From assembly GCF_003334385.1 (NCBI RefSeq), contig NZ_QOWN01000056.1: 28,549 nt of DNA. One strand, given 5' to 3'. The stretch comes from Escherichia coli (lineage in GTDB: Bacteria > Pseudomonadota > Gammaproteobacteria > Enterobacterales > Enterobacteriaceae). Positions 3,512-3,568 of the stretch are shown here, piece after piece (within the stretch, counting starts at the first letter, position 1; each line of letters starts with the position of its first letter). The position numbers were made by a program, and so were the translations under genes. The notes under the pieces are model-generated. The model saw only the letters and a program-made list of their open reading frames with translations. It was not told the DNA's origin and made no database searches.

Positions 3512-3568
3512 CAGGCAAACGCCAGTAAAAATCCGCGCTATGAAGCAGTTTTTACTGGCATTTGCCTG
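3512..3568. repeat. Long imperfect palindrome: 20-bp arms (one mismatch) around a 17-nt loop, in the gudP-yqcA intergenic region
   Basis: caggcaaacgccagtaaaaa (3512..3531) pairs with tttttactggcatttgcctg (3549..3568). No U-run follows on either strand. Confidence 0.5.

Follow-up and report, generated by a model that had tools for sequence, protein, structure and literature searches.

Divergent control regions that depend on an activator, such as malEp-malKp and araC-araBAD, carry strictly phased sites. At the RNA level, exonucleases reportedly trim Rho-dependent transcripts back to a protective 3' stem-loop, a process said to have been described by Dar and Sorek in 2018, and stems of 20 bp or more can be cleaved by RNase III. 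In E. coli, the regulator CdaR activates gud, gar, and its own gene (PMC11077982; PMC7544201). A computational SdaR motif is stated in the text of Rodionov et al. (2011; PMC3223726) to be conserved upstream of the E. coli targets. Because an experimentally defined CdaR operator or CdaR binding data were not found in the searchable literature, the box used in this study was derived from sequence comparison. The promoter fragment of a CdaR biosensor with 168-fold induction by glucarate spans the whole palindrome described here (PMC4551912), which fits the reading of the palindrome as an operator and is uninformative about it. Operator pairs, divergent promoters, and hairpins arising from dyad symmetry are all of a familiar kind; the element itself and its description are new to the searchable literature, in the main texts of which no account of a yqcA-gudP intergenic element was found.

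The analyzed window, a stretch of 28,549 nt of E. coli DNA, covers the gudD-gudX-gudP / yqcA-truC-yqcC / csrB / syd region, and MG1655 coordinates are obtained by adding 2,918,914 to window positions. Since gudP (1834-3186) and yqcA (3621-4070) are both on the minus strand, the 434-bp gap between them is downstream of yqcA and upstream of gudP. The palindrome at 3512-3568, caggcaaacgccagtaaaaa / tccgcgctatgaagcag / tttttactggcatttgcctg, consists of two 20-nt arms (3512-3531 and 3549-3568) around a 17-nt loop (3532-3548), with 19 of the 20 arm positions being Watson-Crick complementary. The odd pair, 3520/3560, is C.A in plus-strand RNA and G.U in minus-strand RNA, and a repeat search extends the symmetry to 35-nt arms that are 77% complementary (3497-3531 / 3549-3583). 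Between the palindrome and the yqcA stop codon (3621-3623) there are 53 nt; the gudP ATG (3186) is 326 nt away on the other side. The preliminary description of this locus had given the letters, the imperfect palindrome with its 20-nt arms and 17-nt loop, and the distances to yqcA (53) and gudP (about 330) correctly. Its statement that no U-run flanks the stem holds outside the stem, where neither strand has one, whereas each arm holds an internal A5/T5 run beside the loop. These internal runs make the loop region resemble the remnant of a bidirectional terminator.

A search for further copies of the palindrome, which the preliminary description had proposed, found none: every one of the 5,426 complete E. 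coli genomes contains the region, at an identity of at least 95% in nearly all cases, and it occupies a median of one place per genome, also at blastn sensitivity. A mobile or repeated element (REP/BIME or MITE) was ruled out by this single copy. No annotated feature underlies the palindrome. A REP-like GCCGGGTAAGGCG..CCCGGC element does occupy the equivalent place in many Enterobacter and Citrobacter species.

Promoter layout in the CdaR regulon

The cdaR promoter contains the invariant sequence TTGCACAATG with TATGCT or TATTCT 24 nt downstream in Escherichia, Salmonella, Dickeya, Pantoea, and Pectobacterium, among which the CdaR protein is 82-100% identical. The E. coli garP and gudP promoters read GCATTTGCACAATG-...-TATACT and GTTGTTGCACGGTG-...-TATACT, both with a gap of 24 nt, and the pattern TTGCAC-24 nt-TATACT/TATGCT is common to garP, gudP, and cdaR of E. 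coli. In Serratia, Dickeya, Pantoea, and Cedecea, gudP stands back-to-back with garD and yqcA is not upstream; the gudP side has the same layout there, and the garD side, with the sequences read by eye, has its box in the opposite direction, and a gap of 24 nt (25 nt in Dickeya) separates this box from TATACT or TATGCT. A second box, inverted and weaker, lies 42 bp upstream of the first in both gar (4039-4046 and 4081-4088 of locus L083) and gud (3361-3368 and 3403-3410 of the window). The comparison thus shows a common promoter grammar of the CdaR regulon, consisting of a TTGCAC-type box, 24 nt, a -10 hexamer, and an inverted second box 42 bp upstream.

A 17-mer position weight matrix (PWM) of the box was trained on cdaR and gar sites only, with five of its seven sites being orthologues of a single site. 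Across the 28.5-kb window, 12 of 57,066 positions reached at least 8 bits; the garD-side box of Pantoea scored 23.7 bits. The gudP box 1 (3355-3371, minus strand; TGTGTTGTTGCACGGTG), whose TTGCAC hexamer is 24 nt upstream of the -10, scored 9.3 bits in the window and 7-15 bits at the same position in almost every locus. The gudP box 2 (3400-3416; core GCATTAGC at 3403-3410), inverted and 42 bp upstream of box 1, reached 7-11 bits in many genera and 1.8 bits in E. coli. The probable gudP -10 hexamer is TATACT at 3329-3334 on the minus strand: in 68 loci, TATACT begins 29-30 nt from where the TGCAC anchor starts, and a promoter scan flagged GTGAGA-17-TATACT in loci L008 and L010.

The palindrome module in Escherichia and other genera

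The comparative set comprised 80 loci around yqcA, one genome per species. A module of ~110 bp that bears the palindrome is present in Escherichia, part of Citrobacter, Salmonella, Silvania, Superficieibacter, Kosakonia, Phytobacter, and Raoultella-like genomes, and in 22 module sequences conservation takes the form of sequence blocks, not of a hairpin. From these 22 sequences RNAalifold recovered no consensus hairpin; the 20 stem pairs were formed in 72% of cells versus 69.5% with columns shuffled, and true covariation was seen in one pair only (alignment columns 44/76; A-U, C-G, U-A).

For the analysis of spacing, all loci were anchored gap-free on the conserved TGCACGGTGAG upstream of gudP. 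Relative to this anchor, CGTGAAG is at -72 in 64 loci, and CTGAATCG occupies -221 to -223 in 13 loci; in Salmonella, where the palindrome loop is 10 nt shorter, its position is -213. For the GTCAAGCGA block, the offset from gudP box 1 is -146 to -148 in 30 of 32 loci and -136 in the remaining two. The sequence between the blocks cannot be aligned between genera, and its lengths agree within 1 nt or differ by one helical turn. Such fixed spacing combined with free spacer sequence would be expected of a phased protein-DNA assembly, not of the RNA 3' end of an upstream gene. The most conserved block of the module alignment is the one adjoining the palindrome (3486-3511, minus strand; GAGTCAAGCGATCCATTTCATACTCT), and it is also found in genera that do not have the palindrome.

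The yqcA-side arm (3549-3568) contains the perfect octamer GCATTTGC at 3558-3565, and its best 17-mer is CTGGCATTTGCCTGAAA (3555-3571, plus strand). At the orthologous position, and oriented away from gudP, the box was matched with 9-16.7 bits in at least six genera; individual scores were 9.2 bits in two Citrobacter, 15.2 in C. sedlakii, 16.7 and 13.0 in Salmonella, 11.2 in Silvania, 9.2 in Superficieibacter, and 8.9-11.2 in Raoultella. On the window plus strand, which is antisense to yqcA and gudP, a -10-like hexamer, defined as matching TATAAT at 4 or more of 6 positions with A2 and T6 among them, follows the box hexamer by exactly 24 nt in 15 of the 23 loci outside Escherichia; a tolerance of 1 nt raises this to 18 of 23. 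When positions were drawn at random from these sequences and the best of three offsets was taken, 4 of 6 matches were reached in 8.8% of cases. The hexamers vary by lineage (TACACT, TAGAAT, TAGGAT, CATAAT, TAAAAT, TATAAA, TATGAT, TAAACT, and TAACAT) and the 24-nt spacer of Raoultella is entirely different in sequence; conservation therefore concerns the pattern rather than an inherited sequence.

The gudP-side arm (3512-3531) carries the octamer GCAAACGC at 3515-3522 and an A5 run at 3527-3531 (T5 on the minus strand), and it takes the place of the weak second box of the grammar, with a best score of -0.6 bits for the 17-mer at 3509-3525 on the minus strand. In other loci this arm is likewise a weak PWM match, as the second box is elsewhere. 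The two octamers are inverted, with centers at 3518.5 and 3561.5, i.e., 43 bp apart (33 bp in Salmonella), and the arms thereby stand to each other as a box and its inverted second box 42-43 bp upstream. Taken together, the position of the box, the -10 hexamer, and the second-box spacing indicate that the grammar occurs here a third time, divergent from gudP, with the arms as its two boxes.

Both E. coli arms keep the 8-nt core GCATTTGC / GCAAACGC (GCAWWTGC) and are without the invariant CAC-AATG part of the box. This octamer occurs about once per 7 kb, and an 8-mer common to the gud, gar, and cdaR regions arose in 3.3% of shuffles, which counts against an operator reading; with the arms also failing the fuller PWM, the shared octamer was rejected as proof of CdaR binding.

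Most other candidates in this region were also rejected. A CRP site seen by eye in the GTCAAGCGA..TTCACAC block (aGCGA-N6-TCACA, 3486-3511) scored -1.3 to 5.0 bits, and -0.6 bits in E. coli, with a PWM built from 27 footprinted sites whose training minimum is 5.5 bits. A possible Cra operator at GCTGAATCG, kept as a side remark, was at chance level in the window: the block at 3572-3585 matches the Cra/FruR sequence RSTGAAWCSNTHHW at 13 of 14 positions, the window holds 7 such matches versus 6.1 expected, and the main text of the Cra ChIP-exo paper does not name this block as a site. A 29-aa antisense open reading frame (MKTRTRKEGL..., 3439-3528, plus strand), considered for the length-conserved spacer, is not conserved, ranging from 3 to 82 aa with scattered stops. 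For a sigma-70 promoter TTGACT-16-AAAAAT (3505-3532, plus strand), matches are no commoner than in shuffled sequence, and other genera do not keep its -10.

Decay and constraint in Escherichia

The yqcA-side arm of E. coli scores 3.1 bits at 3555-3571, within the top 0.3% of window positions, and the gudP-side arm -0.6 bits; these poor matches to the box PWM count against an operator reading. Downstream of the box, the plus-strand stretch at 3568-3596 comprises the conserved block GATTCGATTCAGC (3573-3585) and the hexamer TAAAAC (3591-3596), which gives either TAAAAC at 23 nt or AAAACG at 24 nt and in both cases misses T6. From the hexamer at the antisense -10 position to the yqcA stop there are 8-32 nt in Escherichia versus mostly 65-94 nt in other genera. 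In the latter, a conserved start region resembling GTCGTTATTT lies in this segment, as does, in the yqcA 3' flank, a CCCTCC..GGGAGGG hairpin that is missing from Escherichia. By its sequence, the backward-facing promoter of Escherichia thus appears to have decayed, with a weak box, a -10 without the final T, and a deleted downstream segment.

The lower five pairs of the stem are found in Escherichia only, where a clustered change in one arm, TTTTCATAG to TTTGCCTGG, rendered it complementary to the other arm and added five pairs. The Escherichia changes have raised the complementarity of the arms and not their likeness to the box, an observation that goes against an operator reading and fits selection for pairing or template-switch mutation.

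Divergence was compared among six Escherichia lineages, with the third codon positions of yqcA (0.211 differences per site) and gudP (0.155) as neutral proxies. Per-site differences are 0.043 and 0.097 in the two arms and 0.015-0.052 elsewhere in the gudP upstream region, versus 0.240 in the yqcA-proximal part of the gap and 0.392 in the loop. The arms are therefore still under purifying selection in Escherichia. The high divergence of the loop, whose length is constant and whose sequence is free within Escherichia, arises because the loop is inverted between lineages, with 13 of 17 positions matching the reverse complement (equalled by none of 5,000 shuffles), and this inversion implies that the arms interact at the DNA level.

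Interpretation and comparison with known systems

The explanation we favor, with about even confidence and on comparative grounds, is that the palindrome is a distal CdaR-type operator pair acting at the DNA level, the remnant of a divergent promoter. On this view, a promoter module of the CdaR type that depends on an activator would lie upstream of the gudPXD promoter and face the 3' end of yqcA, with the arms as its pair of inverted boxes. In Escherichia, the divergent promoter would have been lost and the pair of sites retained in fixed register with the gudP promoter, where the retained sites may help a CdaR activation complex to form on gudP, e.g., by looping. The RNA hairpin would be a by-product of the mirror symmetry that may incidentally cap yqcA read-through transcripts. 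The comparison establishes the palindrome and its constraint, the common grammar, the fixed spacing to the gudP promoter, and the decay in Escherichia; the role of CdaR as the binding protein, its continued binding to the E. coli arms, and an effect on gudP are what we infer from this arrangement. The register with the gudP promoter, the shared grammar, and the conservation of sequence without pairing are hard to explain except by a reading at the DNA level. Among the three options offered in the preliminary description, a protein-binding palindrome at the regulator-dependent gud promoter appears to be the best supported, through the positions of the boxes and the fixed distance to the gudP core promoter, with the poor PWM match of the E. 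coli arms standing against it. A decayed operator pair of a divergent promoter was not foreseen among those options.

The palindrome would also form a strong RNA hairpin. As the fold-energy calculation suggested in the preliminary description confirmed, it is predicted to fold with -30.2 kcal/mol (z = -7.9) on the plus strand and -36.8 kcal/mol (z = -9.0) on the minus strand, and none of 200 dinucleotide shuffles folded as stably. The main alternative, less likely than the operator reading, is that the palindrome serves as the protective 3' hairpin of the yqcC-truC-yqcA transcript: after Rho termination on the C-rich stretch downstream, exonucleases would trim the RNA back to the minus-strand hairpin, stabilizing the mRNA and shielding the gudP control region from read-through, and Escherichia would have co-opted the operator pair for this purpose once the ancestral yqcA hairpin had been lost. 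The minus strand, which is 6.6 kcal/mol more stable than the plus strand, pairs all 20 positions (one as G.U) and up to 24 consecutive ones, which corresponds to the ~20-bp double-stranded length of an RNase III substrate or an exonuclease-blocking hairpin, and most of the arm variants of Escherichia yield G.U pairs on that strand. The two changes in strain L003 speak against it, being mismatches on the minus strand but wobble pairs on the plus strand. In the sense strand after the hairpin (3423-3520, minus strand), C outnumbers G by a factor of 1.9-2.25 and YC dinucleotides number 15-16 per 78 nt. This C-rich, G-poor stretch resembles a Rho loading site, which is relevant only to this RNA-level alternative, and E. 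coli has no other terminator after yqcA. The missing CCCTCC..GGGAGGG hairpin and the shortened distance to the yqcA stop, the stem extension limited to Escherichia, and the combination of constrained arms with a free loop would all agree with a hairpin function, and it is this alternative that best accounts for the Escherichia arms gaining complementarity instead of box likeness. However, it leaves unexplained the fixed register with the gudP promoter, the conservation of sequence without pairing in distant genera, and the promoter grammar on the opposite strand. In addition, the consulted excerpts of the Term-seq tables of one study (Adams et al., 2021; PMC7815308) list the csrB 3' end at 2,924,161 and no RNA 3' end between MG1655 positions 2,914,915 and 2,924,161, and thus none at the palindrome, where the preliminary description had proposed to look for one; yqcA and gudP were not seen in the SMRT-Cappable-seq tables consulted. 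Since yqcA may be poorly expressed and the tables as consulted may be incomplete, these are weak negatives, and the processing or stability element of the preliminary description is still a live rival, backed by the stable minus-strand hairpin, the C-rich flank, and the lost ancestral hairpin, but silent on the register. An improbable explanation is that the palindrome is a functionless relic in E. coli whose arms have been kept alike by template switching or gene conversion between inverted repeats and not by selection. The clustered change that matched one arm to the other, the loop inversion, which indicates that the arms recombine or template-switch, and the degenerate state of both the box and the -10 would agree with a relic. 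Against it, divergence in the arms, and all the way from them to gudP, is 2-10 times lower than at third codon positions in the neighboring genes, the end of the gap near yqcA equals these neutral proxies in divergence, and the element is kept in every one of the E. coli genomes.

The palindrome is not a classical terminator. The layout of A5, loop, and T5 would suit an intrinsic (Rho-independent), possibly bidirectional yqcA terminator in which an inner hairpin and T5 terminate and A5 and T5 pair afterwards. In a Citrobacter locus (L008), a central CCTTTC..GAAAGG hairpin with a T-run was scanned as terminator-like on both strands, and in several other genera a run of T5-7 comes after a GC stem at this place in the module; this central GC stem and T-run are left unexplained by a pure operator model. 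In E. coli, however, the inner minus-strand hairpin CUGC/GCGG before the T5 run has only 4 pairs and -2.8 kcal/mol, falling to about -0.2 kcal/mol in two other Escherichia lineages; the terminator scan of the minus strand at 3100-4100 was empty; the sole T5 run (3527-3531, minus strand) is paired inside the 20-bp stem, with no U-run after it; and the consulted Term-seq excerpts (PMC7815308) have no 3' end here. We thus consider such a terminator very unlikely. Just as remote is an independent small RNA, an RNase III processing site, or some other structured RNA, which the preliminary description had raised as the core of a small structured RNA. The stem of at least 20 bp would be enough for RNase III, and the conserved blocks of the module could in principle be RNA motifs. 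That suggestion was not supported: Rfam matches to the palindrome were at chance level only (all E > 1; plant miRNA and Plasmodium snoRNA), a search of four orthologous loci at the Rfam gathering threshold returned CsrB alone, the alignment gave no RNAalifold consensus and weak covariation, no 3' end is listed in the Term-seq excerpts of PMC7815308, and yqcA is absent from the SMRT-Cappable-seq tables consulted.

The readings of the palindrome as an operator and as an RNA hairpin are not mutually exclusive, and both may be true. In a joint version, which we regard as unlikely, a CdaR-dependent divergent promoter that produces a short RNA is live in Salmonella and relatives, and in Escherichia the operator pair has been exapted as a hairpin of the yqcA mRNA. 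If so, Salmonella, Citrobacter, Raoultella, Kosakonia, and related genera would fire the module away from gudP, producing an unannotated RNA of ~65-75 nt that begins in the GTCGTTATTT start region and ends at the CCCTCC..GGGAGGG hairpin beside yqcA. The deletion in Escherichia would have taken both this short RNA and yqcA's own hairpin, and the orphaned operator pair would have become the 20-bp palindrome, possibly via template switching, i.e., an operator turned into an RNA structure. For the putative antisense short RNA as a candidate structured RNA, RNAalifold recovered the terminal hairpin only, and the candidate was rejected.

CdaR is widely used as a glucarate and glycerate biosensor, and the grammar together with the phased ~250-bp region upstream of gudP gives testable sites that would be useful for engineering and for the wiring of the regulon. 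Mirror-image protein sites can give rise, as a side effect, to what looks very much like an RNA hairpin, a point that calls for caution in genome scans. There may further be an unannotated divergent transcript in Salmonella and its relatives, whereas the consequence for the biology of E. coli itself is modest.

Among described elements, REP/BIME sequences resemble the palindrome in being intergenic and located just downstream of a gene, but the E. coli palindrome is single-copy in every genome and has no REP sequence similarity. Bidirectional intrinsic terminators share with it the A5 and T5 around the loop, and its Citrobacter orthologues have a genuine-looking central hairpin; in contrast to such terminators, the E. 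coli inner stem is 4 bp and the full stem runs far past the A/U tracts. The protective 3' stem-loops of Rho-dependent transcripts are likewise stable hairpins without a U-tail followed by a C-rich, G-poor untranslated stretch, whereas the palindrome is phased with a downstream promoter and has no mapped 3' end in the Term-seq excerpts consulted.

At the DNA level, the locus may be likened to malEp-malKp and araC-araBAD, with back-to-back promoters, a shared upstream region, and distances that are kept while spacer sequence is free; unlike in those systems, one of the two promoters appears dead in E. coli. Within the regulon to which gud also belongs, the counterpart is the E. coli garP-garD box pair, two putative CdaR sites. 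The gar boxes, which score 17-24 bits, differ from the distal arms of gud by their TGCAC half-site and by a good TATACT that follows after 24 nt, whereas the gud arms are weak in score, have no usable -10, and are far more mutually complementary (19/20). In both cases, two inverted copies of the GCAWWTGC core lie at nearly the same distance, 42 bp apart in gar, with A/T-rich inner flanks, and because the layout of two inverted boxes is the same, the gar pair also forms an imperfect palindrome, TGTGCATATGCTCAAAA ... TTTAGCATTTGCACA.

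Conserved elements of the gudP control region

The core control region of gudP (window positions 3329-3436, minus strand) has a rigid layout that is also present in 68 related loci. The order of its elements is CGTGAAG, box 2, 42 bp, box 1, and then TATACT, where the two boxes are the inferred CdaR sites upstream of gudP. Box 2 is a GGGCTTATGCCC-like palindrome, and box 1 reads TGTGTTnnTGCACGGTG, with 24 nt from its TTGCAC hexamer to TATACT. This layout is kept across the Enterobacteriaceae and reaches Serratia and Dickeya, with every distance constant within 1 nt.

The highest conservation in the yqcA-gudP intergenic region was observed for the block GAGTCAAGCGATCCATTTCATACTCT (3486-3511, minus strand), which is kept even in genera without the palindrome. 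The block lies upstream of box 1 at a distance that is always 146-148 nt (or 136 nt), and its score falls short of a CRP site. A Cra-like block, GCTGAATCGAATCT (3572-3585, minus strand), is located between the box and the -10 element of the divergent promoter that faces away from gudP. Thirteen of its 14 positions agree with the Cra/FruR consensus RSTGAAWCSNTHHW, and it is kept as CTGAATCGAGTTAGC in other genera; within the window, such a candidate match is at chance level.

Loop inversion and neighborhood variants

The 17-nt loop of the palindrome (3532-3548) is inverted between Escherichia lineages. Comparison of locus L004 with L007 (and L006) revealed 13 reverse-complement matches among the 17 positions, a value reached in none of 5000 shuffles. 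By sequence comparison, the inversion is a flip of the spacer between the inverted arms of the palindrome, which accounts for the loop being approximately twice as divergent as synonymous sites among these lineages.

The surroundings of the palindrome also vary. One E. coli genome, NZ_CP095856.1, matches just the yqcA-proximal 157 bp of the gap (3464-3620), palindrome included, and thus the gudP-proximal part is missing or interrupted there. One additional copy of the intergenic region was reported on a plasmid. In Escherichia albertii (L013), the sequence 3' of yqcA is unrelated and carries a GCCCTCTGATAATCAGAGGGC hairpin; the palindrome is absent, and the blocks of the gudP promoter are missing within 750 nt.

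Possible origin and putative product of the divergent promoter

Outside the Escherichia/Salmonella group, in Serratia, Dickeya, Pantoea, and Cedecea (L089-L092), gudP is arranged back-to-back with garD rather than 3' of yqcA, and therefore the divergent promoter relic of E. coli may descend from a former garD-side promoter. In Salmonella arizonae (L024, approximately 2951-3034, reverse strand of the locus) and at the equivalent place in L008, L023, L047, L054, L058, L070, and L079, a conserved start region (GTCGTTATTT / GTCGCTATTTT / CGTTTATC) lies 3' of the predicted divergent -10 element. Next comes a hairpin of variable sequence with a CTGGC loop, and after it a CCCTCC..GGGAGGG hairpin, conserved in sequence, that adjoins yqcA. 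This region could give rise to a CdaR-dependent RNA of ~65-75 nt that has escaped annotation. The terminal hairpin was the sole structure recovered in the putative RNA by RNAalifold, and no Rfam match was obtained for it.

A CRP-like element upstream of cdaR

In the cdaR promoter, a TGTGA-N6-CCACA element upstream of the box (L084, 1355-1376) is conserved in alignment A2. A new CRP site upstream of cdaR has been reported by Footprint-seq (PMC12871828), and the element is probably its counterpart.
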